Source: Nanobdellota archaeon
Lineage (GTDB): Archaea > Nanobdellota > Nanobdellia > Pacearchaeales > GW2011-AR1
NCBI GenBank assembly: GCA_018816335.1
Contig: JAHIVP010000013.1
Span: forward strand, 19,226-83,225
DNA length: 64,000 bases
Direction: 5' to 3'
Shown: positions 7,941-36,274 of the stretch, piece by piece
Position numbering within the stretch: the first letter of the stretch is position 1
How the letters are laid out: each line of letters begins with the position of its first letter
The notes under the pieces: generated by a model
What the model was told of the DNA's origin: nothing
Seen by the model: the letters and a program-made list of their open reading frames with translations, nothing else
The model's database searches: none
Position numbers and translations under genes: made by a program

Positions 7941-9755
7941 TTAAAAACTTTTCTTTTTCCTAGTATTCCTACTCCCCCGAAACCCCTCTTTCTTTTTCCT
8001 GCCATCAAACTTTCTATCATCATTTCTTTCTCCAAACTTTCTATCATCTCTTCCACCAAATCTTGGCTTATCTCCAAATTTCTTTGTTCCTCCAAAACTT
8101 CTTTTTCCTTCATCTCTATTTCCAAATCTAGGTTTATCTCCAAATTTCTTATCCCCACCAAAACTCTTCCCACCAGAATCCCCATCTCTTCTCTCAAACC
8201 TCCTTCCTCCACCTTCACTTCTTCCATAACTTTTCTTCTCTCCAAATCTAGGCTTATCTCCAAACTTCTTAGGACCACCAAAACTTCTTCTATCTCCATC
8301 TCTTCCACCAAATCTTGGTTTATCTCCAAACTTTTTATCTCCATATCTTTTTGAATCTCCAAAACTCTTTCCACTAGAATCTCCATCTCTTCTCTCAAAC
8401 CTTCTTCCACCACTAAATCTAGGCTTATCTCCAAATTTTTTCTTATTATCAAAATTCCTACTTCCCCCACCCCTATTATCTCTCCCACCACTAAAACTTC
8501 TACTTCCTGATCTAAAATTTCCTCTATCTCCATCACTTCTACCTCTAAATCTATTTTTTCCAAATCCATTTGTATCTATAGGTACTCTCTCTACATAAGG
8601 AGTCTTCAACTTTTCTATCTTAATTTTTTCATCTTTCTCAACTTTTCCAAAATTATCATAATCTCTACTTGCTAAAATACTAATTGCAATCCCGTCTTTC
8701 CCAGCTCTAGCTGTTCTTCCAATTCTATGTATATATTCATCCGCTGTTTTAGGTATATCAAAATTATAAACATGCGAAACACCCTTAATATCCAACCCTC
8801 TAGCAGCAACATCAGTACAAACCATCACATTAACATGCCCTTTATGAAAACCATCTAATACTCTAGTTCTCGAATTCTGACTCAAACCTCCATGAATTGC
8901 TTTAGCTTCAACACCATTTTTCTTTAAATTTTGTTCAACAAAATCAACATTTCGTCTTGTCGCACAAAAAACCATTACAAGTTCAGATTTCTCATTTTTT
9001 AACAAATGCACTAAAAGAGAAAATTTCAATCCATCTTCAACATCATAATAAACCTGTTTTAATTTAGTAGCATCAACCATTGATTCAACAGCTACTTCAA
9101 TAGCATCTTTTGTATGTTTTTTAGCAAGATGGTCTATATCTTGAGAAATTGTAGCAGAAAACAACATTGTTTGTCTCTGTTCTGGAACCTGAGAAATAAT
9201 CTTATTAACATCATCATAAAACCCCATATCAAACATTCTATCAACTTCATCTAAAACAAGAAACTTCACCTTTTCCAATTTTATAGTATTTCTTTGCATA
9301 TGATCTAAGATTCTTCCAGGTGTTCCAACAACAACATCAGCAGTTTTTAATTTAGAAATTTGTGGTTCAATACCAACACCCCCATAAACAGTCGTAATCT
9401 TAAGAGGATTATACTTAGCAAATCTTTCTGTTTCTTGAGCAACTTGTTGTGCTAACTCTCTAGTTGGAGTTAAAATCAAAGCCTGCACACCTTTCCCTCT
9501 CTTTAAATTATCAATAATTGGAGCACTAAATGCTAAAGTTTTCCCACTTCCTGTCGACGATCCACCAATAACATCTTTCCCAGCTAACACTAAAGGAATC
9601 GCTTGTGTTTGAATATCGCTCGGTTCTTCAAACTTCATATCCTCAATAGCTTTCAAAATAGGCTCACTAAGGCCGAGTTTCTTAAACTTGTCCATATTAA
9701 ATTTTTTGAGAAAAAGCAAATTGTTAATTCCTTCTTCTCTACCATACATAATCAT
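7941..9755 (-). CDS. DEAD-box ATP-dependent RNA helicase with a C-terminal RGG/FGDKPRF tandem-repeat tail
   Basis: Motifs GSGKT, PTRELA, TPGR, DEVD, SAT, ARGLD and HRIGRTAR are present. About 150 C-terminal residues consist of KKFGDKPRFGGRDG-type repeats. Confidence 0.85.
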   Translation of the reverse strand: MIMYGREEGINNLLFLKKFNMDKFKKLGLSEPILKAIEDMKFEEPSDIQTQAIPLVLAGKDVIGGSSTGSGKTLAFSAPIIDNLKRGKGVQALILTPTRELAQQVAQETERFAKYNPLKITTVYGGVGIEPQISKLKTADVVVGTPGRILDHMQRNTIKLEKVKFLVLDEVDRMFDMGFYDDVNKIISQVPEQRQTMLFSATISQDIDHLAKKHTKDAIEVAVESMVDATKLKQVYYDVEDGLKFSLLVHLLKNEKSELVMVFCATRRNVDFVEQNLKKNGVEAKAIHGGLSQNSRTRVLDGFHKGHVNVMVCTDVAARGLDIKGVSHVYNFDIPKTADEYIHRIGRTARAGKDGIAISILASRDYDNFGKVEKDEKIKIEKLKTPYVERVPIDTNGFGKNRFRGRSDGDRGNFRSGSRSFSGGRDNRGGGSRNFDNKKKFGDKPRFSGGRRFERRDGDSSGKSFGDSKRYGDKKFGDKPRFGGRDGDRRSFGGPKKFGDKPRFGEKKSYGRSEGGGRRFERRDGDSGGKSFGGDKKFGDKPRFGNRDEGKRSFGGTKKFGDKPRFGGRDDRKFGERNDDRKFDGRKKKEGFRGSRNTRKKKSF

Positions 9756-13003: not shown

Positions 13004-13825
13004 ATGATGGAGCAAAAAGAGGCGCTTGAAAAACTCAAAACAGAATTAAAACTCCGAGGGTATTCTCACCTTACTGAAAAAAATTATGTTTTCTTTATTG
13101 AAAAATTTTTAAAACACTCTAACACAAAAATTGATCTCCTTAATGAAGATAATGCAAAATCATATTTAGCGTCGTTATTCGAAGACAAGTCAAGAAACAC
13201 AATTATGTTAGCAGCTTCGGCAATTAAATTCTTTTATAATATCTTAAAGAAAAATCTTTCTGAAATCACCCTTCCAAAAAAAGAAAAAAAGCTACCAATT
13301 GTTTTAAGTAAAAAAGATATAATCTCACTTTTGAATTCTTCCCAAACTAAAAAATCTAAACTTATACTTTCTTTATTATATTCTTCAGGATTAAGAGTAT
13401 CAGAGGTTGTTAATCTAAAAAAACAAGATATTGATTTTAATGATAAAATAGGGTGGGTTAGAAAAGGAAAAGGTTCAAAGGATAGAATATTTAGTATCTC
13501 TGAAACATTATTAAACCAGGTAAAAGAATATTTAACTTCTCATCCAGATAATGAATATGTATTTTCTAAAACAACGCCTCTTACTCCAAGAAATATACAA
13601 AAAATTATAAAACTTACAGCAACTAAAGCTGGAATAGAAAAAAGAGTTACTCCCCATACTTTAAGACATTCTTTTGCAACACATCTTCTTGAAGATGGAA
13701 CAGACATTAGAGTTATTCAAACAATGTTAGGTCACGAAAACTTATCAACAACTCAGATATATACCCACATATCTCAAGAACAAATTAAAAAAGTTGTAAA
13801 TCCTTTTGATAACTTAGAACTATAA
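13004..13825 (+). CDS. xerA: tyrosine site-specific recombinase (XerA/XerC-D family)
   Basis: The catalytic region HTLRHSFATHLLEDGTDIRVIQTMLGHENLSTTQIYTH (R..H...R/H..Y) is present, plus an N-terminal SAM-like domain. Confidence 0.85.
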   Translation: MMEQKEALEKLKTELKLRGYSHLTEKNYVFFIEKFLKHSNTKIDLLNEDNAKSYLASLFEDKSRNTIMLAASAIKFFYNILKKNLSEITLPKKEKKLPIVLSKKDIISLLNSSQTKKSKLILSLLYSSGLRVSEVVNLKKQDIDFNDKIGWVRKGKGSKDRIFSISETLLNQVKEYLTSHPDNEYVFSKTTPLTPRNIQKIIKLTATKAGIEKRVTPHTLRHSFATHLLEDGTDIRVIQTMLGHENLSTTQIYTHISQEQIKKVVNPFDNLEL

Positions 13826-15010: not shown

Positions 15011-15034
15011 ATTATTCCTCTATCAATCCTTTTG

Positions 15035-15150
15035 CGGGTCACGCATTTACAGCCCCATGCCCTAACATTCTTCTGCCCCGACCGGACTGTGTTGCGGGTC
15101 ACGCATTTACAGCCCCATGCCCTAACATTCTTCTGCCCCGGCGGGCTGTG
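15035..15150 (-). repeat. two tandem GC-rich direct repeats (about 60 nt each) immediately 3' of the tRNA, each ending in CCCGCA
   Basis: In minus sense the unit is CACAG(C/T)CCG..GGGGCAGAAGAATGTTAGGGCATGGGGCTGTAAATGCGTGACCCGCA(A), present twice. GC content is far above the local background. Confidence 0.8.
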
Positions 15151-15152
15151 AA

Positions 15153-15236
15153 TGCGGGAAGAAGGATTCGAACCCTCGTAGGCACTAAGCCAACACGCCC
15201 TTAACGTGTCCCGTTTGACCGCTCCGGCATTCCCGC
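15153..15236 (-). tRNA. class II tRNA (long variable arm), most likely tRNA-Leu; by canonical positions the anticodon reads AAG
   Basis: Manual cloverleaf: a 7-bp acceptor stem GCGGGAA/TTCCCGC plus discriminator A; a canonical T-loop TTCGAAT with a 5-bp stem; a D-loop containing GG; a 5-bp anticodon stem ACACG/CGTGT with loop TTAAGGG; a 15-nt variable arm. Confidence 0.7.
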
Positions 15237-15352
15237 ATTTATGCAGGATGCATTGACACAACCAAAATCTAATTTTTCAGAGTATCAGGTTGGTAAGGGT
15301 GTTCCTTACAGCATTCCCGCTTATTCATTCGAATATTAAGGAACTTAAAAAT

Positions 15353-26604: not shown

Positions 26605-27318
26605 ATGGGAAAAAGAATTATACAACAAAGACGAGGAAAAGGAGGATTAACTTATAGAGTTAGAGCCAGTGCTTTTCCGTTTAAATTAGGATACCCTCAA
26701 AAAATTGAAGGAGTTTGTAAAGTTGTAAAATTAGTGAACTCTCCAGGACATTCAGCTCCTCTTGCAAAAATCCAAATTAAAGGAATTACATTTTATAATA
26801 TTGCAAATTATGGATTAATTGAAGGACAAGACCTAGACTTAGGAGGAAACGAAATAAAAGATGGAAACATTTTACAATTATCAAATATTCCCCTTGGCTC
26901 AAAAGTATTTAATATAGAATCAACTCCTGGAGACGGTGGGAAATTATTAAGAGTTGGAGGAAGTTCAGCTAGAATTTCTAAAGTTGAAAAAAATGGAATT
27001 GGAGTAATGTTTCCATCAAAAAAAGAAAAAATATTCACCCCAGAATGTAGAGCAACAATAGGAACAGTTGCTGGAAGTGGAAGATTAGACAAACCTCTAT
27101 TCAAAGCAGGAAAAAACTTTCATATCAAGAAAGTCAGAGGAAAATTATACCCAAGAACATCAGCAGTTTGTATGAATGTTAATGACCATCCATTTGGGTC
27201 AGGTAGAGGAAAAAATCTAACTCACGGAACAAAAGGAAAAGTTCCTAAATTAAATGCACCTCCTGGAGCTAAGGTTGGAACACTAAGGCCTAGAAGAACA
27301 GGAAGGAAGAAAAGATGA
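26605..27318 (+). CDS. rpl2: ribosomal protein uL2
   Basis: HPFGSGRGKN (a variant of the HPHGGG motif). TGA stop. Confidence 0.9.
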   Translation: MGKRIIQQRRGKGGLTYRVRASAFPFKLGYPQKIEGVCKVVKLVNSPGHSAPLAKIQIKGITFYNIANYGLIEGQDLDLGGNEIKDGNILQLSNIPLGSKVFNIESTPGDGGKLLRVGGSSARISKVEKNGIGVMFPSKKEKIFTPECRATIGTVAGSGRLDKPLFKAGKNFHIKKVRGKLYPRTSAVCMNVNDHPFGSGRGKNLTHGTKGKVPKLNAPPGAKVGTLRPRRTGRKKR

Positions 27319-27431
27319 TAGCAACAAAACAAAATCACAAATTCAGGGGGAAAGTAAAAGACTTCAAAATATTTAATTTTGAAGTTCCTAAAATTTTTAA
27401 TTTTAGAAAAAACCGAGGAGGTTGTCTTTAA
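27315..27431 (+). repeat. copy 1 of a 117-nt repeated element carrying a 38-codon basic micro-ORF (MIATKQNHKFRGKVKDFKIFNFEVPKIFNFRKNRGGCL), two hairpins and a GGAGG Shine-Dalgarno sequence
   Basis: The ATG overlaps the rpl2 TGA (ATGA) and the TAA abuts the rps19 ATG. It contains a 10-bp perfect inverted repeat (ACTTCAAAAT/ATTTTGAAGT) and an 8-bp one (CTAAAATT/AATTTTAG). It is 95-98% identical to the copies at 29982 and 36158. Confidence 0.8.
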
Positions 27432-27836
27432 ATGGAAGAACAAGAATTTCACAAAAAAGAATTTATATTTAGAGGAAAAACTCTAGAAGAATTACAAAAA
27501 CTTGACACTCGTGAGTTTGCAAAATTCCTTAAATCAACCCAAAGAAGAGCAATATTAAGACAAACAGAGATTATAGAAATGTTTTTACAAAAATGTCAAA
27601 AAAGAATAGAAAAATCAAAAAATATCCTAACTCACAATAGATCAATTGTTATAGTCCCAAAATTAGTAGGATTAACAGTTCAAGTTTATTCAGGAAAACA
27701 ATATGTTCCAGTTAAAATAGAACAAGAAATGTTAGGACATAGATTAGGAGAGTTTGTACCTACAAGAACAAAAGTTCAACACGGAGCACCTGGAATTGGA
27801 GCAACTAAATCATCAGCAGCAATGAGTGTAAAATGA
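27432..27836 (+). CDS. rps19: ribosomal protein uS19
   Basis: Sequence and position. Confidence 0.9.
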   Translation: MEEQEFHKKEFIFRGKTLEELQKLDTREFAKFLKSTQRRAILRQTEIIEMFLQKCQKRIEKSKNILTHNRSIVIVPKLVGLTVQVYSGKQYVPVKIEQEMLGHRLGEFVPTRTKVQHGAPGIGATKSSAAMSVK

Positions 27837-28429
27837 TAGCAGAAGAAGAAAAAAATAAACCACAAGTGGAAGAGAAAAAACCAGAAGTAACAAAACCAGT
27901 TACAACACCAAAATCTGAAGATAAAATAAAAACTGAAGATAAAAAAGAACAACCTGAAGAAAAAGAAACTAAAGATAAAAAGTCAGACAAAAAACCAGAA
28001 AAGAAAATAGAAAAAAAAGACAAAGGAGAAGTTAATGTTCATGCTCAACATATATCAACAAAACATGCAATTGCTATCTGTAAATTTATCTTAAAAAAAC
28101 AACCATTCTTAGCAGTAAACCAATTAGAAGAAGTAGTTAAGATGAAAAGAGCAATTCCAATGAGAGGAGAAATACCTCATAGAAAAGGAATGATGTCAGG
28201 AAGATACCCTATAAACGCAGCAAAGATTTTCATTAAATTAATTAAACAGCTGCAAGCTAATGCTGAAGTTAATGGTTTAGAAGAACCAATAATCATCTCA
28301 AAAGCAATGCCAAATGTTGCAGCTCGTCCAATGAGAAGATTTGGATCTAGAAGATTTAAAAGAACAAATATCCAATTAGTAGCAATAGAAAAGAAACCAT
28401 CTCAAAAAAACAAGGGGGGGAAAAAGTAA
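27833..28429 (+). CDS. rpl22: ribosomal protein uL22 with a K/E-rich N-terminal extension of about 60 aa
   Basis: L22 core (HAQHISTKHAIAICKFI...). The start ATGATAGCAG overlaps the rps19 TGA. Confidence 0.85.
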   Translation: MIAEEEKNKPQVEEKKPEVTKPVTTPKSEDKIKTEDKKEQPEEKETKDKKSDKKPEKKIEKKDKGEVNVHAQHISTKHAIAICKFILKKQPFLAVNQLEEVVKMKRAIPMRGEIPHRKGMMSGRYPINAAKIFIKLIKQLQANAEVNGLEEPIIISKAMPNVAARPMRRFGSRRFKRTNIQLVAIEKKPSQKNKGGKK

Positions 28430-28430
28430 A

Positions 28431-29153
28431 ATGGAAGAAAGAAAATTTGTACAAATGAAAAAAGAAGAACTAGGAGTTAAAGAGTACATCAAATCTAATT
28501 TAGGAAAAGGTAAAATCTCTACAGTTCAAATAGAATATACTCCAATTGGGGAGAAGATTATAGTTTCAACTACAAAACCAGGATTTGTAATTGGAAAAAG
28601 AGGAGAAAAAATAAATGAACTTACAGATATACTTAAAAAAAGATTTAATTTAGAAAATCCTCATATTGAAATCCAAGAAATATTAAACCCGGACTTTGAT
28701 GCACAAAATGTTGCTGATGATTTGGCATTAGCCTTAGAAAGAATGGGAAATCTAAAATTCAAAGTCATCGCTTATAGGGCAATAGATAGAATAATGAAAT
28801 CTGGAGCACTAGGAGTTGAAATAGTAATGTCAGGAAAACTTCCTAGCAAAAGAGCAAAAACTTGGAGATTTGCACAAGGATACCTAAAGAAAACAGGAGA
28901 CACAGCAAAAGTTGTAAACAAAGCTCAGGCTATTTCACAAACACAACCTGGTGTAACAGGAATAAAAGTATCAATTTTACCCCCAGACGCAAAAATAGAA
29001 GATAGAATAATCATAGATGACAAAATAAGAGCAAAAATAAATCAAGATCTCAGTTTACTGCAGGGAGAAAGTCCACAGCAAAGCGAGAAATCGCACAGCA
29101 CTAATAAATCTGAGAAAAAAATTAAAAAAGCAAATGACAATCCTAAAAAATAA
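28431..29153 (+). CDS. rps3: ribosomal protein uS3 (KH domain)
   Basis: KH motif GFVIGKRGEKINEL. Confidence 0.9.
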   Translation: MEERKFVQMKKEELGVKEYIKSNLGKGKISTVQIEYTPIGEKIIVSTTKPGFVIGKRGEKINELTDILKKRFNLENPHIEIQEILNPDFDAQNVADDLALALERMGNLKFKVIAYRAIDRIMKSGALGVEIVMSGKLPSKRAKTWRFAQGYLKKTGDTAKVVNKAQAISQTQPGVTGIKVSILPPDAKIEDRIIIDDKIRAKINQDLSLLQGESPQQSEKSHSTNKSEKKIKKANDNPKK

Positions 29154-29334
29154 AGACGCAAAGAAAATGGAAACTAAAGAAATAGAATCTAAACTTAAAG
29201 AATTAAAAATGGAACTAATAAAGAAAAACGTAGCAGCAAACAAATCTTCAAAGATTAAATCAAAGGAAATTAAAAAAGCAATAGCTAGATTACTAACACA
29301 ACTTAAAATTAAATCAACTAAAGCTAAAAAATAA
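29134..29334 (+). CDS. rpl29: ribosomal protein uL29
   Basis: Sequence and position. Confidence 0.8.
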   Translation: MTILKNKDAKKMETKEIESKLKELKMELIKKNVAANKSSKIKSKEIKKAIARLLTQLKIKSTKAKK

Positions 29335-29335
29335 A

Positions 29336-29635
29336 ATGGATATATGCCCAAAATGTGGTCTTCCACAACACGCTTGTGTATGTGAAGAAATCGCAAAACA
29401 AGAACAGAAAATCAACATAGGGTTGGTTAAAAGAAAATACGGAAAATACTCCACAGTTGTAAGTGGATTTGGAAACGACGTAAACATAAAAGACATTGCG
29501 AAAGAACTAAAAAGCGAACTAGCATGTGGAGGAACAGTTAAAAACAACGCAATTGAACTACAAGGAGACCATAAGAAAGCTGTAACACCAATCTTGATAA
29601 GATTAGGTTTTTCAGAAGATTCAATTACACAATAA
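29336..29635 (+). CDS. translation initiation factor SUI1/aIF1 with an N-terminal zinc ribbon
   Basis: CPKCGLPQHACVC, followed by a SUI1 fold (TVVSGFGNDVNIKDIAKELK...GGTVKNNAIELQGDH). Confidence 0.8.
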   Translation: MDICPKCGLPQHACVCEEIAKQEQKINIGLVKRKYGKYSTVVSGFGNDVNIKDIAKELKSELACGGTVKNNAIELQGDHKKAVTPILIRLGFSEDSITQ

Positions 29636-29637
29636 AA

Positions 29638-29985
29638 ATGGAAAAACAAACAAAAAACAAGAAAAACATAGCTGAACCTAGCTGCGACGATCCACACTGC
29701 CCTTTTCACGGAAAATTATCAGCCCGAGGAAGAACATTCCAAGGAGTTGTTATTAAAAAATTCCCAAAAAGACTAACAATTCAATTTGAAAGAACAATCT
29801 ATTTAAAAAAATATGAAAGATACATGAAAAAAAAATCAAAACTTCATGCAAGAATCTCAAAGTGCATGGAAGACAAGATTGACCTTGGAGACTATATACA
29901 AATCCAAGAATGTAGACCTCTATCAAAGATTATACATTTTGTTGTAATTAAATTAATCAGGAAGAAAGAAGAAAAAGGAAAATGA
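29638..29985 (+). CDS. rps17: ribosomal protein uS17
   Basis: Sequence and position. Confidence 0.85.
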   Translation: MEKQTKNKKNIAEPSCDDPHCPFHGKLSARGRTFQGVVIKKFPKRLTIQFERTIYLKKYERYMKKKSKLHARISKCMEDKIDLGDYIQIQECRPLSKIIHFVVIKLIRKKEEKGK

Positions 29986-30098
29986 TAGCAGCAAAGCATA
30001 ATCACAAATTCAGAGGGAAAGTAAAAGACTTCAAAATATTCAATTTTGAAGTTCCTAAAATTTTTAATTTTAGAAAAAACCGAGGAGGTTATCTTTAA
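29982..30098 (+). repeat. copy 2 of the 117-nt micro-ORF element (MIAAKHNHKFRGKVKDFKIFNFEVPKIFNFRKNRGGYL)
   Basis: Same architecture as copy 1. The ATG overlaps the rps17 TGA and the TAA abuts the rpl14 ATG. Confidence 0.8.
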
Positions 30099-30500
30099 AT
30101 GAAAGGAATATCCGCAAAACCAACAAGAGCATTAAACATTGGTAGTTTAGTAAACGCTGCAGATAATTCAGGAGCAAGAATTGTTAAAATAGTATCTATT
30201 AAACACGGAAAAACAAGAAAAGGAAGACAAGGATATGCAAAACTTGCAGACTGGGTAAAAGTATCAGTAAGAAAAGGAAACCCTAAAATGAAAGGAGAAG
30301 TTTTTGATGCAGTTGTTGTTAGACAAAGAAGAATATGGAGAAGAAACTCAGGTGAAAGAGTAGCATTCACAGACAATGCTGTTGCTTTATTAAAAGATCT
30401 TAAAGGAAATCCAAAAGGCACACAAATCAAAGGCCCAATTGCAAGAGAAGTTCAAGAACGATGGAAGGAGGTAGCTAAAATAGCTAGTATTGTAGTATAA
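30099..30500 (+). CDS. rpl14: ribosomal protein uL14
   Basis: Sequence. Confidence 0.9.
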   Translation: MKGISAKPTRALNIGSLVNAADNSGARIVKIVSIKHGKTRKGRQGYAKLADWVKVSVRKGNPKMKGEVFDAVVVRQRRIWRRNSGERVAFTDNAVALLKDLKGNPKGTQIKGPIAREVQERWKEVAKIASIVV

Positions 30501-30507
30501 ACATAAA

Positions 30508-30936
30508 ATGAAACAAAAATTCTCAACTTCATGGAAATCAAGCAAACAACCTAGAAAGCAAAGAAAATTCAGAGCTAACGCTCCAATCCATATAGCAAGA
30601 AAATTCATGGCAGCAAATTTATCTAAAGACTTAAGAAAAAAACATGAAAGAAGAAGCTTCCCAATAAAAAAAGGAGATACAGTTAAAATTATGAGAGGTA
30701 AGTTCACTAAGAAAACAGGAAAAATCGCCTCTGTTTCAATAAAAAGACAAAGAGTTTCAATTGAAGGAATGCAATCAAAAAAACTAGACGGAACATCTGT
30801 AAATGTCTGGTTCAATCCATCAAATCTTCAAATTACAGATATAAACTTAGATGACAAAAAAAGATTAAATTCAATAAATAAAAAACTAAAATCAGAAAAC
30901 ACTGAGGAAACAAAAAATGCACCTGAAAAGAAATAA
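30508..30936 (+). CDS. rpl24: ribosomal protein uL24 (KOW)
   Basis: KOW motif KKGDTVKIMRGKF. Confidence 0.85.
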   Translation: MKQKFSTSWKSSKQPRKQRKFRANAPIHIARKFMAANLSKDLRKKHERRSFPIKKGDTVKIMRGKFTKKTGKIASVSIKRQRVSIEGMQSKKLDGTSVNVWFNPSNLQITDINLDDKKRLNSINKKLKSENTEETKNAPEKK

Positions 30937-31561
30937 AGTACCAAGAAGATGGGCAATTCCTAGAAAAGGAACAAAATTCGTAGTCCAACCTAATGATAAT
31001 AGAAAGAATGGAATTTCAATACTTATAGTTATGAGAGACATGTTAAAAATCGCAAAAACAAGAAAAGAAGCCAAAGCAATAATCCATAATAAAGATATTT
31101 TAGTAAATAATAAAACAGTTACAGACGAAAAGTTTTCTGTTTCTCTTTTTGATAAAATAAATCTAAAATCTTCAAAAAAATTCTACAATGTTTTATATGG
31201 CAAAAGAAAAATAATATTAAAAGAAATCCCTGAATCTGAAGCCAAATCAAAAATACTCAAAATAGTAAATAAAACAATATTAGGAAAAGATAAATTCCAG
31301 ATAAATTTAAGTGATGGAAGAAATTTCTTAACAAAAGAAAAATATTCTGTTGGAGATTCTATAACTTTTGAGATAAACGAGAATAAGATAGGAAAAACAA
31401 TCCCTATTAAAAAAGGTTCTGAAGTTATTATTATTAGTGGAAAGCACTTAGGAAAAATAGGAAAAATACATGACATGGATGAAGATGGAAAATCAGCAAT
31501 AGTTGAACAAGAAGATTCAAAAATAAATATCAACCTAAAAAATTTAATAGTAACAAAATGA
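30917..31561 (+). CDS. rps4e: ribosomal protein eS4 (S4e)
   Basis: Sequence. Confidence 0.85.
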   Translation: MHLKRNKVPRRWAIPRKGTKFVVQPNDNRKNGISILIVMRDMLKIAKTRKEAKAIIHNKDILVNNKTVTDEKFSVSLFDKINLKSSKKFYNVLYGKRKIILKEIPESEAKSKILKIVNKTILGKDKFQINLSDGRNFLTKEKYSVGDSITFEINENKIGKTIPIKKGSEVIIISGKHLGKIGKIHDMDEDGKSAIVEQEDSKININLKNLIVTK

Positions 31562-32112
31562 TACAACAAGAACAAGTACAAGTAGAGAAACAAGTAGAAA
31601 AGAAAACAATCCCAATAAAGATAGAAAAAATAGTTTTAAACATAGGTGCTGTAGCAGAAGATTTAGAAAAAGGATTTAAATTACTTAAATTAATTTCAGA
31701 AGCAACACCAGTAAAAACAAAATCAACAAAAAGAATTCCTGCTTTTGGTGTTCGTCCTGGTTTAGAAACAGGATGCAAAGTTACATTAAGAAAAAAGAAA
31801 ATTGAAATTCTAAAGAGATTATTTGTTTCAGTTGATAATACTATCAAAGAAAATCAAATACAAGATAACCATTTTTCATTTGGTATTCACGAATATATTG
31901 AAATTCCTGGAATTGAGTATCAAAGAGAAATTGGAATAATGGGATTTGATGTAACTGTTGTATTTTCAAAACCAGGAAAAAGAGTTATGTATAAAAAAAT
32001 GAAAAAAGGAAAATTCCCAAAAAGACAATATGTCACAAAACAAGAAATAATAGATTACTTAAAACAAACTTACAAGCTAAATATCATTCCTTCAAGGAGA
32101 AAGAAAAAATAA
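31558..32112 (+). CDS. rpl5: ribosomal protein uL5
   Basis: Sequence. Confidence 0.85.
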
Positions 32113-32113
32113 A

Positions 32114-32344
32114 ATGACAGCAAGTGATTGGAATAAAATAATGAAGCAATTAACAAAAAAGCCAGCAAAGCAACAGAAATTTCTTAAGCACAATAAACCT
32201 AACGATAGGAAATTTGGAGTTGCTGCAAGAAAATGTGAAAGATGCGGCCGTTTCGGAGCCCACATTAGATCATACGGATTAAATTTATGCCGACACTGTT
32301 TCAGAGAAATAGCAGTAGAACTCGGATTTAATAAATATTCATAA
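32114..32344 (+). CDS. rps14: ribosomal protein uS14 (zinc type)
   Basis: CERCGR...CRHCFRE. Confidence 0.85.
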
Positions 32345-32352
32345 AAAATAAA

Positions 32353-32727
32353 ATGTCACAAGATATAACAGCAGATGCATTAAATCAAATAATGAATGCC
32401 AAAAAAGCAGGCAAAGAATCACTCAACCTAGCTAGACATTCAAAACTTTTAGAAAGCGTTTTGAAAATAGCAAAAGAACATAACTATATTGAAGAATTCA
32501 AAATTGAAGATGAAATTCTAACAATTAAAATAGGAAAATTAAACAAATGTCAAGCAATAAAACCAAGATATTATGTTAAAAAAGAAGGAATCGACAAATA
32601 CATTAGAAGATATCTTCCAGCAAGAGATTTTGGAATAATAATTGTTTCAACAAATAAAGGATTAATGACAAATATTGAATTACACGAAGAAAAAATCGGA
32701 GGAAGCGTAATAGCTTATTTCTATTAA
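32353..32727 (+). CDS. rps8: ribosomal protein uS8
   Basis: Sequence. Confidence 0.85.
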   Translation: MSQDITADALNQIMNAKKAGKESLNLARHSKLLESVLKIAKEHNYIEEFKIEDEILTIKIGKLNKCQAIKPRYYVKKEGIDKYIRRYLPARDFGIIIVSTNKGLMTNIELHEEKIGGSVIAYFY

Positions 32728-32728
32728 A

Positions 32729-33265
32729 ATGAAACGAGACATATTAGAATCAGTTGAAATTCCAGAAGGAATAGAAGTAGAATTAGATAAAAACAAAATT
32801 ACAATCAAAAACAAAGATGTAACTCTAACAAAACAAATTATAAACCTTCCAATTAAAATAAAAGACAATAAGATAATATTTGAAAAAAAGAATGCTAATA
32901 AAAATGATAAAAAAATAATAAAAACTTTTTTAGTTCATATGAAAAATATGATACAAGGTGTTCAAGAAAAATTCACCTATAAACTTCAAATAGCTTCTTC
33001 TCATTTCCCAATTACAGTTGAAAAAAATAATAATCTAATTATAATCAAAAATTTTCTAGGAGAAAGAAAAGATCGTATATCTAAAATACTCGAAGATGTT
33101 GATGTTAAAATTGAAGGTGAGTTCATAACAATAGAATCTAATAATAAAGAATCAGCAGGACAAACTGCAGCTAATCTTGAAACTGCAACTAAAATAAGAA
33201 ACAGAGATAGAAGAAGATTTCAAGACGGAATATATATAACTGATAAAGCAGGCAAGGAGATCTAA
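32729..33265 (+). CDS. rpl6: ribosomal protein uL6
   Basis: Sequence. Confidence 0.85.
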   Translation: MKRDILESVEIPEGIEVELDKNKITIKNKDVTLTKQIINLPIKIKDNKIIFEKKNANKNDKKIIKTFLVHMKNMIQGVQEKFTYKLQIASSHFPITVEKNNNLIIIKNFLGERKDRISKILEDVDVKIEGEFITIESNNKESAGQTAANLETATKIRNRDRRRFQDGIYITDKAGKEI

Positions 33266-33266
33266 A

Positions 33267-33653
33267 ATGAGAAAATACACAAGAAGAAACACAAATGAAT
33301 TATTAAGATTAGGTAAAAAAAATAAAAAACTTAGAAAGTGGAGACGGCCAAGAGGAAGAGATAACAAAATGAGAGAAAGAGTAAAAAACAGACAGAAACG
33401 ACCAGAAATTGGAAGCAGAAAAACAAAAAATGAACAAGGAAAAGTTAGAGGAAAAACTCCAATGTTAATTAAAACAATAAATGATTTAAAAAAAATCAAA
33501 AAGGAAAACATTGCAATTTTAGCAAAAGTAGGATTCAAAACAAAAAACAAAATAGCTCAAGAAGCAAAAAAACTAAACATTCAATTTTCAAATTTTGATG
33601 TATTCAAATTTTTAACTAAACAAGAACCTGAGAAAACAGAAGATAAAAAATGA
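33267..33653 (+). CDS. rpl32e: ribosomal protein eL32 (L32e)
   Basis: Sequence. Confidence 0.8.
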   Translation: MRKYTRRNTNELLRLGKKNKKLRKWRRPRGRDNKMRERVKNRQKRPEIGSRKTKNEQGKVRGKTPMLIKTINDLKKIKKENIAILAKVGFKTKNKIAQEAKKLNIQFSNFDVFKFLTKQEPEKTEDKK

Positions 33654-34045
33654 ATTTAAGAAGAAAAAAAATATTAGCTGCAAAAAAACTAGGAGTTGGA
33701 AAAAACAAAATAAAATTCGATTCTGATAGTTTAAACGAGATTAAAGAAGCAATTACTTCATTAGATATTAAAGATCTTAAAAATAGTAATGCAATAACAA
33801 TCAAAGAAAAAAAAGGCAGAAAAAAAATAACAAAAAGAAAAACAAAAGTAAGACAAGGAAAAATCAAAAAAAATGTTAATACAAGAAAGAGAGACTATGT
33901 AAATTTAACAAGAAAACTAAGAACATTTGCAAAATCTCTAAAAAAACAAGGAAAAGTTACTAGGGATGAATATATAGATATAAGAAAAAAAATCAAATCA
34001 AAATTATATAAAAGTAAGGCTCACCTTAAGGAAAATTTAAAATGA
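33650..34045 (+). CDS. rpl19e: ribosomal protein eL19 (L19e)
   Basis: Sequence. Confidence 0.8.
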   Translation: MNLRRKKILAAKKLGVGKNKIKFDSDSLNEIKEAITSLDIKDLKNSNAITIKEKKGRKKITKRKTKVRQGKIKKNVNTRKRDYVNLTRKLRTFAKSLKKQGKVTRDEYIDIRKKIKSKLYKSKAHLKENLK

Positions 34046-34509
34046 AGATAATACCCAAGCGAAGAAGAAGAGAACAAAAAACTGATTATAAAACTAGATT
34101 GAATCTTTTAAAATCTGGATTAACAAGAATAGTATTTAGAAAATCAAATAAATATATTATTGGTCAAGTAGTTAAAAGCAGTAATGCTCAAGACAAAATA
34201 ATTTTTACATTTAATTCTAAATATCTCTTAAAAAATGGTTGGCCTGAAAATAAAAAAGGCAGCCTAAAATCATTACCTGCTGCTTATCTAACAGGATATT
34301 TCCTAGGAAAAGAATCAAAAGTCCAAGAAAATGTTATATTAGATATTGGAATGATTAGAAACATTCCTAACTCTAAACCTTTTGCTTTTCTAAAAGGATT
34401 AGTTGATGCTGGAGTCAAAATAAACCATAATAAAGAAGCTCTTCCAGATGATAAACTAATAAGAAAAGATAAAGAACTTTCTGAAATAATAGATAAATTA
34501 ATAAAATAA
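34042..34509 (+). CDS. rpl18: ribosomal protein uL18
   Basis: Sequence. Confidence 0.8.
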   Translation: MKIIPKRRRREQKTDYKTRLNLLKSGLTRIVFRKSNKYIIGQVVKSSNAQDKIIFTFNSKYLLKNGWPENKKGSLKSLPAAYLTGYFLGKESKVQENVILDIGMIRNIPNSKPFAFLKGLVDAGVKINHNKEALPDDKLIRKDKELSEIIDKLIK

Positions 34510-34514
34510 CAATA

Positions 34515-35261
34515 ATGGAAAAAAAATCAAATCAACAATATAGGAAAAATTCTAGAGCACCTTTTGATAGAAGAAAACATGGAGAAATGTCTTATGCAGA
34601 AAAGAGAGAAGCTGATAAAGTAGACAAATTATCTAGTTGGGTTCCAAAAACAAAACTAGGAAAACTTGTAAAAGCAAAAAAAATAACAAATATTGATGAA
34701 GTTATAGAAAAATATAAAATTCTTGAATCTGAAATTGTGGATTTATTAATCAAACTAAAAGAAGACATTCTTAATATTGGACAAGCTAAAGGAAAGTTTG
34801 GTGGAGGAAAAAGAAGAATATGGAGACAAACTCAAAAGAAAACAAAAGAAGGAAATGTTGCAACCTTCTCAACTATGGTAGTTGTTGGAGATGAAAACGG
34901 ACATGTTGGATTAGGATATGGAAGAGCTAAAGAAACACTACCTGCTCGAGAAAAATCTTTAAAAAAAGCTAAGTTAAATATAATAAAAATTGAAAGAGGA
35001 TGTGGAAGCTTTGATTGTGCATGCAGTGAATCTCATACTGTTCCATTAAAAGTTGAAGGAAAATGTGGAAGCACAAGAGTTATATTAACTCCAGCCCCAC
35101 AAGGAACAGGACTAGCAATCGGAGATGAACTTAAAAAGATATTAAAATTAGCAGGAATAACAGATGTTTATGGAAAAACTTTTGGACATAAAAGAACAAC
35201 ACTAAATTTAGCTAAGGCTTGTATGATAGCTCTTAAAAAAACAACTCAATTTGAAAAATGA
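34515..35261 (+). CDS. rps5: ribosomal protein uS5
   Basis: Sequence. Confidence 0.85.
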   Translation: MEKKSNQQYRKNSRAPFDRRKHGEMSYAEKREADKVDKLSSWVPKTKLGKLVKAKKITNIDEVIEKYKILESEIVDLLIKLKEDILNIGQAKGKFGGGKRRIWRQTQKKTKEGNVATFSTMVVVGDENGHVGLGYGRAKETLPAREKSLKKAKLNIIKIERGCGSFDCACSESHTVPLKVEGKCGSTRVILTPAPQGTGLAIGDELKKILKLAGITDVYGKTFGHKRTTLNLAKACMIALKKTTQFEK

Positions 35262-35698
35262 ATAAAGAATCATCTAATAATCTAATCGTAGCAATAAGAA
35301 TAAAAGGAATGCTAAAATTAAATACTCAATTTAAAGAAACTTTACATAGATTAAGACTTCGAAGAAAATACGCATGTGTACTTATCAACCCTACTAAAGA
35401 AAGTTTAGGAATGATAAATAAAGTAAAACAAATGATAGCATTTGGAAATATTGATGATAAAACTTTATTAGAACTTATTGAAAAAAGAGGACAACCAATA
35501 GACAAATCAGTAAAAATTGATCCTAAAGCAGCAGCAGAAGCAATAAAAAAAGGAGAAAACTCACAAGATTATAATCTTAAACCATTTTTTAGATTACACC
35601 CCCCACGAAAAGGTATAAAATCTAAAGAACCTTATCCTAAAGGAGTACTAGGAAACCATAAAGAAAAAATAAATGACTTAATCAAGAGGATGTTGTAG
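35258..35698 (+). CDS. rpl30: ribosomal protein uL30
   Basis: Sequence. Confidence 0.8.
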   Translation: MNKESSNNLIVAIRIKGMLKLNTQFKETLHRLRLRRKYACVLINPTKESLGMINKVKQMIAFGNIDDKTLLELIEKRGQPIDKSVKIDPKAAAEAIKKGENSQDYNLKPFFRLHPPRKGIKSKEPYPKGVLGNHKEKINDLIKRML

Positions 35699-35699
35699 A

Positions 35700-36161
35700 A
35701 TGGAAAATAATCAAAAAGAAACACAAAACCCTACAAATATTGAAGATTTAAAAAAAGGAAGATTCATAGTAAATACTTCAGCTATAATTTTTGATACTAA
35801 AACAAAAAAGATTTTAATTGGAAAAAGAAAAGACGACCCATTTATTAAAGATATGACTTGGTGTTTTCCTTGTGGTAGACCAACTAAAAAAGATACTCTT
35901 GAACAAGCATTAAAAAGAGAAGTGAAAATAAAAACCGGATTAGAAATAGAAAGCTTAGGTCCTATATTTGTTAGAATAGTAGAATACAATCCAGAATTTT
36001 TATCAATTTTTTATTTATGTGAAGTTACTGGAGGAGAATTAAAAGCAGGTGAAAAATTAGTAGAAGTAAAATGGGTTAATCCAGAAGACCTTGAAAAAGA
36101 ATTCACAACACCTCTTGATCCTAAATTAAAAGAATACATAATGGGGTTGAAAGCACAATGA
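35700..36161 (+). CDS. NUDIX-fold protein with a degenerate Nudix box, inserted between rpl30 and rpl15
   Basis: GRPTKKDTLEQALKREVKIKTGL partially matches G-x5-E-x7-REUxEExGU, with D in place of the first E and IK in place of EE. Confidence 0.6.
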   Translation: MENNQKETQNPTNIEDLKKGRFIVNTSAIIFDTKTKKILIGKRKDDPFIKDMTWCFPCGRPTKKDTLEQALKREVKIKTGLEIESLGPIFVRIVEYNPEFLSIFYLCEVTGGELKAGEKLVEVKWVNPEDLEKEFTTPLDPKLKEYIMGLKAQ

Positions 36162-36274
36162 TAGCAGCAAAGCACAATCACAAATTCAGAGGGAAAGTAA
36201 AAGACTTCAAAATATTCAATTTTGAAGTTCCTAAAATTTTTAATTTTAGAAAAAACCGAGGAGGTTGTCTTTAA
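36158..36274 (+). repeat. copy 3 of the 117-nt micro-ORF element (MIAAKHNHKFRGKVKDFKIFNFEVPKIFNFRKNRGGCL)
   Basis: The ATG overlaps the Nudix TGA and the TAA abuts the rpl15 ATG. Confidence 0.8.

Follow-up and report, generated by a model that had tools for sequence, protein, structure and literature searches.

A dispersed hairpin repeat with a putative translation-bridging frame at stop/start junctions of a DPANN ribosomal-protein super-operon

Three nearly identical copies of a 117-nucleotide (nt) element, labelled W in this report, stand exactly between one gene's stop codon and the following gene's start codon in the ribosomal-protein super-operon of a Nanobdellota archaeon (contig JAHIVP010000013.1). 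They lie in a continuous 64-kb stretch of that contig, which is referred to in its full length as the window. W is probably a lineage-restricted, non-autonomous repeat whose micro-open reading frame (micro-ORF) and Shine-Dalgarno (SD) motif preserve translational coupling across the insert, a reading to which we assign a probability of roughly 0.55.

DPANN genomes are tiny and streamlined, and few known loci are as constrained as their ribosomal-protein super-operon. Its repeated colonisation by guest genes and small repeats alike, always at exact stop/start boundaries, raises the possibility that selfish DNA survives there by means of a ready-made translational bridge. If this is true, W would offer a natural experiment on the translation of internal cistrons in an archaeon that mostly does without SD motifs and leaders, and would test whether termination-reinitiation is obligatory and over what distance. 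W also breaks short-read assemblies inside a phylogenetic-marker operon and yields spurious 'hypothetical protein' calls.

Three copies of W fill stop/start junctions of the operon

The copies are designated A, B and C by window position, and the genes that flank them were identified by Pfam (L2, S19, S17, L14, NUDIX and L15):

27315..27431, forward strand: copy A, between L2 (26605-27318) and S19 (27432-27836)
29982..30098, forward strand: copy B, between S17 (29638-29985) and L14 (30099-30500)
36158..36274, forward strand: copy C, flanked by a Nudix guest gene (35700-36161) and L15 (36275-36742)

A preliminary description of this DNA had reported three 117-nt copies of 95-98% identity at these junctions, and they are present as it said: copies A and B differ at 6 positions (94.9% identity), A and C at 5 (95.7%), and B and C at 2 (98.3%). 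Its account of their fit holds as well, each copy opening with an ATG that overlaps the upstream TGA and closing with a TAA that abuts the next ATG (in copy A, the TGA of L2 and the ATG of S19). The upstream context that it gave is right for this overlap and wrong for the base before it in copy A, which is G and not A (GATGATAGCA). In an alignment of the flanks the boundaries are sharp, with ATGA as the first shared bases, TAA plus the next ATG as the last, and unrelated sequence on either side. Between these limits each copy contains an ORF of 38 codons, whose translation matches the peptide already described, and gene callers have called two of the copies. A 47-nt core pattern matches the window three times against 0.00 expected, and no fourth copy was found within the window by pattern search, repeat search, nhmmer or a covariance model.

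W can be divided into a 5' adaptor and a core with three hairpins, as follows for copies A, B and C in turn:

27315..27336, 29982-30003 and 36158-36179, forward strand: 5' adaptor, 22 nt (ATGATAGCARCAAARCAnAATC), with a start codon and replacement TGA-TAG stops for the upstream gene
27337..27431, 30004-30098 and 36180-36274, forward strand: conserved core, ~95 nt (ACAAATTCAG...GGAGGTTGTCTTTAA), common to the non-operon and other-species copies
27361..27385, 30028-30052 and 36204-36228, forward strand: hairpin 1, 10 bp (ACTTCAAAAT-ATTYA-ATTTTGAAGT)
27388..27406, 30055-30073 and 36231-36249, forward strand: hairpin 2, 8 bp (CTAAAATT-TTT-AATTTTAG)
27411..27423, 30078-30090 and 36254-36266, forward strand: hairpin 3, a 4-bp helix (AACC-GAGGA-GGTT)
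27424..27431, 30091-30098 and 36267-36274, forward strand: 3' tail GTCTTTAA (RTCTTTAA), whose last bases are the micro-ORF stop, with the next ATG following at once

The 5' adaptor (ATGATAGCA...) occurs in the three window copies alone and is missing from two further copies, one on contig L011 and one in another species, L015. Comparison with those two defined the core (AAATTCAGRGG...GGAGGTTGTCTTTAA, ~95 nt), for which a covariance model (R1) gives 115-124 bits to the copies in the same genome and 52 bits to that of L015. The loop and 3' arm of hairpin 2 form a TATA-like T/A tract that starts at -38 from the downstream ATG, and an SD-like GAGGAGGT (27415-27422) lies in and beside the loop of hairpin 3. 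Both perfect hairpins of the preliminary description, of 10 and 8 bp, are present in centroid folds, and the third helix (AACC/GGTT, with the SD in its loop) adds to them. The folding energy of the whole element is ordinary (z = -1.1 to -1.7) and a perfect 10-bp AT-rich hairpin is no rarity by chance (0-5 per shuffled window), so the hairpins of W are supported by their conservation and not by their stability.

The 9-mer ATGATAGCA that opens the adaptor occurs six times in the window against 0.58 expected, three of these occurrences being W itself. It also opens L22 (27833), which begins ATGATAGCAG over the TGA of S19 as previously described, together with a 62-aa ORF 53 nt 3' of the copy on L011 (L011 861) and L30 in a relative, L018 (8533); the other window positions are 35432 and 44604. 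This sharing could be due to chance or could point to where the adaptor came from; for L30 of L018, normal L30 coding accounts for the start.

Copies outside the operon and in another species

The mobile character proposed for W draws on copies beyond the window. One, at 714-808 of contig L011 (115 bits with the covariance model), lies between the genes for endonuclease V and a 62-aa membrane-protein ORF, which are divergently transcribed, and thus occupies a promoter region unrelated to ribosomal proteins. It lacks the first 22 nt and with them the ATG, its SD is mutated (CCGATTAGGT), hairpin 1 has one mismatch, an in-frame stop stands just upstream, and its nucleotide changes are all non-synonymous. 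Direct repeats of 20 nt (ATTTAAATTTTCTTAAAAGA) flank it at 687-706 and 808-827. Relative L023 has only a 73-nt spacer at this position. The L011 copy is also one without stop/start abutment, of the kind that the preliminary description had associated with a plain repeat, and it is the one such copy found.

The divergent promoter of endonuclease V has a TATA-like box (TTTAAAT) that the 20-nt repeat overlaps, so that the insertion would have duplicated a promoter element.

The L011 copy very likely belongs to the same metagenome-assembled genome (MAG) as the window. SecY of the window is 100% identical to MBU0957459.1, and the endonuclease V of L011 is MBU0958085.1; both are recorded as 'MAG: Nanoarchaeota archaeon' (DPANN), on contigs of 162 kb and 37 kb respectively, with accessions 626 numbers apart. 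This brings the copies known in the source genome to four, from 64 kb plus 1.2 kb of that genome read. Relatives whose SecY is 70-73% identical are annotated as Pacearchaeota.

A diverged homologue of W is present in L015, whose SecY is 80% identical to that of the window, at yet another junction, S14/S8 (nhmmer E = 2e-5; covariance model 52 bits, E = 2e-8). This junction is empty in the window and in relatives L016 and L021. The homologue keeps all three hairpins and the 3' tail GGAGGTTGTCTTTAA, and W is thus not confined to its source genome; absence from every related genome had been named earlier as a sign of recent local duplication.

Wider scans returned little else. A codon-wobble pattern of the hairpin region gave two real matches in metagenome contigs (L009 and L011) besides five chance matches, and in public genome contigs it gave chance matches only (Salinicoccus, Methanobacterium and, on inspection, an unrelated archaeon MAG); viral contigs held no match to W with two patterns. 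By these comparisons W is a dispersed element that predates this genome.

Orthologous junctions are empty in relatives

W does not occur at the orthologous junctions of any relative examined, where the genes follow each other tightly:

L2/S19: TAATG or ATGA in L018, L021, L025 and L026
S17/L14: ATGA in L018, L021 and L025
L30/L15: adjacent in L016/L017
Nudix/L15: ...TTGAAAGCAGAATAAAATGAAACTAG (...GCAGAATAAAATGAAACTAG) in L020

The last case is the most direct. L020, whose SecY is 81% identical, has the Nudix guest gene in common with the window, and its Nudix/L15 junction is therefore a clean empty site to set against the window, which reads ...TTGAAAGCACAATGA, then the insert TAGCA...CTTTAA, then ATGAAATTAG. 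Because the orthologous sites are tight and empty, the copies of W in this operon are recent gains.

Hairpins, and not the peptide, are conserved

The five distinct copies were aligned under the guidance of the covariance model, and only one of them, that of L015, is divergent. In this alignment 97% of hairpin cells are paired. Four pairs have changed on both sides, all in L015, two of them in hairpin 1 and two in hairpin 2 (C:G to A:U and U:A to G:C). The counts of pairing and of double changes were reached by 0 of 500 shuffles and by no slid control. The stem of hairpin 3 is invariant in 5 of 5 copies around a loop that reads GAGGA in the window, GATTA in L011 and GGA in L015.

The micro-ORF, for its part, bridges each operon copy, from no more than 3 nt from the upstream stop to no more than 2 nt from the downstream ATG; in L015 it opens 2 nt past the stop of S14 and closes 2 nt short of the ATG of S8. 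Such a frame survives dinucleotide shuffling in only 9-14% of trials, with the 1-in-3 requirement on frame still to be applied. The L015 frame is out of phase with that of the window in two parts, its 5' third and the stretch from the loop of hairpin 2 to that of hairpin 3, and the two peptides share only 9 of 25 C-terminal residues, including the same C-terminal GGCL. These matches arise largely because the conserved tail nucleotides (GGAGGTTGTCTTTAA) force them.

Searches of the peptide in 5.8e9 clustered proteins (word-indexed) and in 1.84e9 representative proteins (full HMMER) found no homologues, only W's own copies; it has no Pfam match, and an exact look-up of the copy C peptide returned no located gene on record. 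At the RNA level, Rfam 15 gave no match at the gathering threshold over the window and none overlapping W at E up to 10. Comparison of the copies thus shows hairpins that are conserved and a peptide that is not. The preliminary description had taken a frame lost while hairpins persist as a mark of purely RNA-level function, and L015 shows part of this, with the frame partly lost and the hairpins kept.

A bridging frame in a genome poor in Shine-Dalgarno motifs

The gene organisation of the host bears on what an insert at these sites must do. An SD core of at least 5 nt precedes only 6 of the 71 predicted genes of the window, and W supplies 3 of those 6. Operon junctions are nearly all TAAAATG, TAATG or ATGA, and most first genes carry a TATA-like TTTAWAWA box starting -29 to -26 from the ATG (examples lie upstream of 13004, 39010, 39932, 50740, 55010 and 56172). 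This box position together with the scarcity of SDs implies that the mRNAs of this DPANN archaeon are mostly leaderless and initiate independently of SDs, and since the operon genes are SD-poor with tight junctions, internal cistrons most plausibly depend on termination-reinitiation. Such coupling decays with spacing and is mostly gone beyond ~30 nt in Haloferax and E. coli, and untranslated archaeal RNA is probably subject to polarity via FttA (PMC12548453).

A naked spacer of 113 nt would consequently be expected to break termination-reinitiation coupling and to expose untranslated RNA to polarity. We infer that W avoids both by being co-transcribed and translated. Its first bases would restore the stop of the upstream gene (T+GA, then TAG) and in the same stroke create an overlapping ATG. 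The 38-codon frame would then stay open through the three hairpins, which translating ribosomes would melt, and would close with a TAA that leads straight into the next ATG, a strong SD (GAGGAGG) standing 10 nt upstream. The peptide would be a by-product of handing ribosomes on to the next gene. The hairpins would be selected for, whether as structures recognised during copying or as a signal for mRNA stability or processing.

Among the three readings that the preliminary description offered, that of a small selfish element donating an SD and a start context is the best supported, given the empty orthologous junctions, the different junction used in L015 and the copy outside the operon. That W is tolerated in the operon is the best-supported form of this reading; it is perhaps also adapted to it.

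Similar inserts and guest genes in related operons

A relative whose SecY is 73% identical, L018, has no W and carries instead a different two-copy family, here called K, at S5/L30 and L30/L15:

L018 8424-8532 and 8960-9073: K copies, ~110 nt each
L018 8395-8427: partial K copy

Both K copies start ATGAAATC, and their frame of 35-36 codons stays open across a 3-nt indel. Each folds into three helices (z = -2.7 to -3.0), one hairpin being kept with different sequence (ACAGAAAT/ATTTCTGT vs CCAAAAATC/GATTTTTGG), and the loop of the last contains AGGA, with TTTAA(A)AATG (TTTAAAATG) coming after the hairpin. They also carry TTTAAATT at -25 from the next ATG, near the -29 to -26 promoter position of the window genome. 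No sequence homology between W and K was detected by nhmmer or the covariance model, and K has no Rfam match; what the two have in common is the architecture and a similar hairpin, CAAAAATC...GATTTTTG, found in the L015 copy of W and in K1.

Almost all spacers of at least 19 nt in the L018 operon contain ORFs that bridge stop to start. Four shorter L018 spacers (22-51 nt) and one in L026 carry mini-ORFs that start at the upstream stop; 4 of these 5 reach the downstream start, and the mini-ORF of L026 runs 10 nt past it.

Across the relatives, short operon spacers (19-56 nt) almost all hold mini-ORFs of 7-21 codons whose start is at or overlaps the upstream stop, and most of these end at the downstream ATG or overlap it. 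They often contain an AAAAATC...GATTTTT hairpin with AAGGAG in its loop. Mini-ORF spacers were located as follows:

L018: 3533-3583, 6317-6346 and 7675-7700
L026: 4851-4883
L025: 7476-7542

We tentatively suggest, as something possible though rather doubtful, that W, K and the mini-spacers of relatives represent an undescribed class of archaeal inserts, selfish or domesticated, whose speciality is the start/stop junction in translationally coupled operons of DPANN genomes that are leaderless and poor in SDs. An insert of this class would bring a 'translational adaptor' made of a replacement stop, an overlapping start, a frame open across its hairpins, an SD in a hairpin loop and a stop that abuts a start, which would let it colonise the most essential operon of the cell harmlessly. 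If so, the same junction route perhaps lets guest genes (Nudix, HD, RNase T) enter these operons.

Guest, that is non-ribosomal, genes stand at differing stop/start junctions of the super-operon across members of the clade. L026 has a Nudix gene at S17/L14 and an HD-domain gene at S19/L22, L025 has an RNase T gene at L4/L23, and L015 has orphan ORFs; NmeDI-like and ParE genes are further cases. The two Nudix guest genes, at different junctions, are only 29% identical. The guest genes have these coordinates:

Window: 35700-36161
L020: 1573-2034
L026: 809-1396 and 3577-3954
L025: 12-593
L015: 45-233 and 5620-5880
L019: 411-2339

Further repeats lie elsewhere in the window. Two tandem GC-rich units of 54 nt, 96% identical (15032-15145, reverse strand), stand directly 3' of tRNA-Leu(AAG) (15152-15237) in a region of otherwise 30% GC, 1.2 kb from a gene for a tyrosine recombinase of the Xer/phage-integrase type (13004-13825); small RNA genes are one possibility for them, remnants of an attachment site another. 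A DEAD-box helicase ORF (7941-9755) contains direct repeats of 80-102 nt in its C-terminal part (8056-8543, reverse strand), and L22 contains Lys/Glu-rich repeats in an N-terminal extension (27842-28000); both appear to be low-complexity protein extensions.

Weighing the bridging repeat against other explanations

Several points weigh against a mobile repeat that bridges translation. Translation of the micro-ORF and bridging are deduced from sequence, and the three window copies are too alike for their open frames to prove selection. Across species, one diverged copy of W and one further family provide the support. The statistics on ORFs are post hoc, and the alignment behind the covariation, itself fitted to the model, has one divergent sequence to carry it. 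The strong SD alone could suffice for initiation, which would make the ORF unnecessary.

On the side of mobility, the four copies known in the source genome are few. The 20 non-ribosomal ORFs of the window that were scanned for domains include no transposase or other gene for mobilisation, the only recombinase seen there being the Xer-like tyrosine recombinase at 13004-13825. W also has no terminal inverted repeats (TIRs): no inverted match of at least 8 nt at 80% identity or more connects the first and last 30 nt of either the 117-nt unit or the 95-nt core. Flanking duplications are inconsistent, with 3-5 nt including ATG in the operon against 20 nt in L011, and those in the operon could be mere recurrences of start-codon context. 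W could therefore have spread by ectopic recombination or gene conversion instead of transposition.

The explanation that competes best with a tolerated, bridging repeat, and that we nevertheless consider unlikely, is a module that acts in cis at the level of RNA or transcription and was selected because it benefits the host. Its hairpins would divide the long ribosomal-protein transcript into segments, whether as a 3' stabiliser, endonuclease site, partial terminator or internal promoter. The ORF would then be secondary, and placement at S10/spc-like boundaries functional. Such a module would fit hairpins kept with compensatory changes between species, the orientation of every operon copy with transcription, and a hairpin 2 loop that is TATA-like in both species (TTTTTAAT here, TTTATAAAA in L015); the motif that K carries at -25 is likewise near the promoter position of the window genome, and effects on promoter activity and on the stability and processing of mRNA are known for REP, ERIC and Correia elements (PMC10969869). 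The TATA-like tract of W, on the other hand, stands at -38/-39, 9-10 nt too far upstream for leaderless geometry, and a transcript from it would be without SD. The three sites have no downstream gene in common, relatives do without the insert, and the L011 copy is decaying within a divergent promoter region, with its mismatched hairpin 1 and mutated SD. Neither the Rfam searches, even at E = 10, nor the unremarkable fold z-scores favour a module of this kind. The processing or regulatory role proposed in the preliminary description thus keeps its conserved hairpins, whose compensatory changes fit action in RNA or in DNA alike.

Specific identities of this sort were rejected. Inspection and Rfam ruled out C/D-box or H/ACA small RNAs (sRNAs), a K-turn, a bulge-helix-bulge intron and an integron attC site; no C/D or ACA boxes stand in register, and W has three short perfect hairpins and not one long imperfect one. 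An autoregulatory mimic of a ribosomal-protein site was dismissed on the ground that the downstream gene differs for each copy (S19, L14, L15, S8, membrane protein). An internal leaderless promoter was set aside, in view of the TATA positions of the genome, and is kept as a minor rival only.

Less likely still is an immobile W with no function, an insertion or piece of filler that arose once by chance and reached two more junctions through ectopic recombination or gene conversion within the operon. This would agree with three copies within 9 kb on one strand, with a 22-nt adaptor common to the window copies and missing elsewhere, with short ATG(A) microhomology at both ends, and with the lack of TIRs and of a nearby transposase. 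It sits poorly with the copy that lies on another contig of the same genome between 20-nt direct repeats, and with the diverged homologue at another junction in another species, whose hairpins are kept by compensatory change. The latter calls for persistence under constraint, or for repeated movement, over species-level divergence.

We think it improbable that W is a genuine micro-protein gene in three copies, whose basic 38-aa product would be functional, for example ribosome-associated and made in stoichiometry with ribosomal proteins. The ORF is intact with coupled start and stop in 3 of 3 window copies and two copies are called by gene callers; it is open in L015 too, with the same GGCL end. 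Three of the six nucleotide differences are synonymous, a count given earlier that stands, though the changes are too few for the split to inform. The coupling geometry on which this proposal was built is real and recurs in independent inserts. Its peptide is another matter, having neither homologues in 5.8e9 or 1.84e9 proteins beyond the copies of W nor a Pfam match. The L015 frame is shifted relative to the homologous nucleotides and matches only in the tail forced by GGAGGTTGTCTTTAA, in L011 there is no ATG, a stop lies in frame close upstream and every change is non-synonymous, and the element is not found at orthologous sites in relatives.

An assembly or chimera artefact is scarcely credible: assemblers can collapse or duplicate repeats, and Logan contig L001 does end inside copy B, but the copies differ at 2-6 positions and have unique flanks, the L2/S19 copy is exact in an independent JGI contig (L009), and the flanking genes are intact and in canonical order.

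Comparison with known systems

Judged by its sequence and placement, W behaves like intergenic repeats of the REP, ERIC and miniature inverted-repeat transposable element (MITE) types, yet fails the TIR test that defines MITEs. REP elements affect mRNA stability, processing and the translation of upstream genes. Similar to REP/BIME and ERIC sequences, which are 35-130 nt long, form hairpins, occur in multiple copies, are non-coding in function and lie between co-transcribed genes near stops without a transposase gene of their own (PMC10969869), W is small, hairpin-forming and intergenic. It differs from them in its archaeal (DPANN) host, in its four known copies, in its single-nucleotide fit between stop and start, and in carrying both an SD of its own and a frame that is open from start to stop; its sequence is not similar to theirs and matches no Rfam family.

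With MITEs, including the archaeal SM/Halobacterium MITEs alongside the Correia element, W shares a small, non-autonomous make-up and absence from orthologous sites in relatives, being present in four copies in one MAG with no transposase in the window. MITEs such as Correia can supply promoters or RNase sites and sometimes short ORFs (PMC10969869), and MITEs are reported to reach high density in some DPANN genomes (PMC11602168). The inverted repeats of W, however, are internal hairpins and not termini. Filled and empty operon sites fit a 3-5 nt repeat with ATG, as any start codon gives, while L011 has 20 nt, so that no single length of target-site duplication (TSD) fits all. Censuses based on TIRs, including those of DPANN genomes (PMC11602168), would miss an element of this kind.

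The hairpins 1 and 2 of W lie ~24 nt from each end of the 95-nt core, and are thus sub-terminal hairpins without TIRs. PATEs derived from IS200/IS605, and elements of the REPtron type, are small, have sub-terminal hairpins, and possess neither TIRs nor an obligatory TSD. W resembles this family in its single orientation and in its two sub-terminal hairpins of related sequence (xAAAAT...ATTTTx). It differs in that no conserved left-flank target tetranucleotide is evident, the left flanks ..AAAAGAT, ..GGAAAAT and ..GCACAAT in the window and ..TAAAAGAT in L011 sharing only RAT. Nor would the 20-nt flanking duplication in L011 be expected from peel-and-paste transposition, and no Y1 transposase (TnpA/RAYT) was seen within the 64-kb window.

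The Rickettsia palindromic elements (RPEs) offer a parallel in the manner of survival proposed here. They are selfish repeats of ~100-150 nt that persist in essential regions by being compatible with translation, and their peptides have no independent function (PMC10969869). W would survive in the same way. RPEs lie in frame inside host ORFs and are translated with the host protein, whereas W stands as its own cistron, coupled to its neighbours on either side: the upstream genes close with TGA (then TAG) at its first bases, downstream genes start after the TAA of W, and no host ORF is fused to it.

Finally, termination-reinitiation at ATGA and TAATG junctions is documented in archaea for Haloferax (Huber et al. 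2019, 2023, as cited in PMC12548453). The stop/start geometry of the micro-ORF, at -4 and 0 nt, falls within the range that supports coupling in Haloferax, and the host operon uses these junction types throughout. The known cases join two bona fide genes, whereas the middle cistron of W appears to be an ORF that fills a spacer and, in the reading that we favour, would carry ribosomes from one gene to the next.

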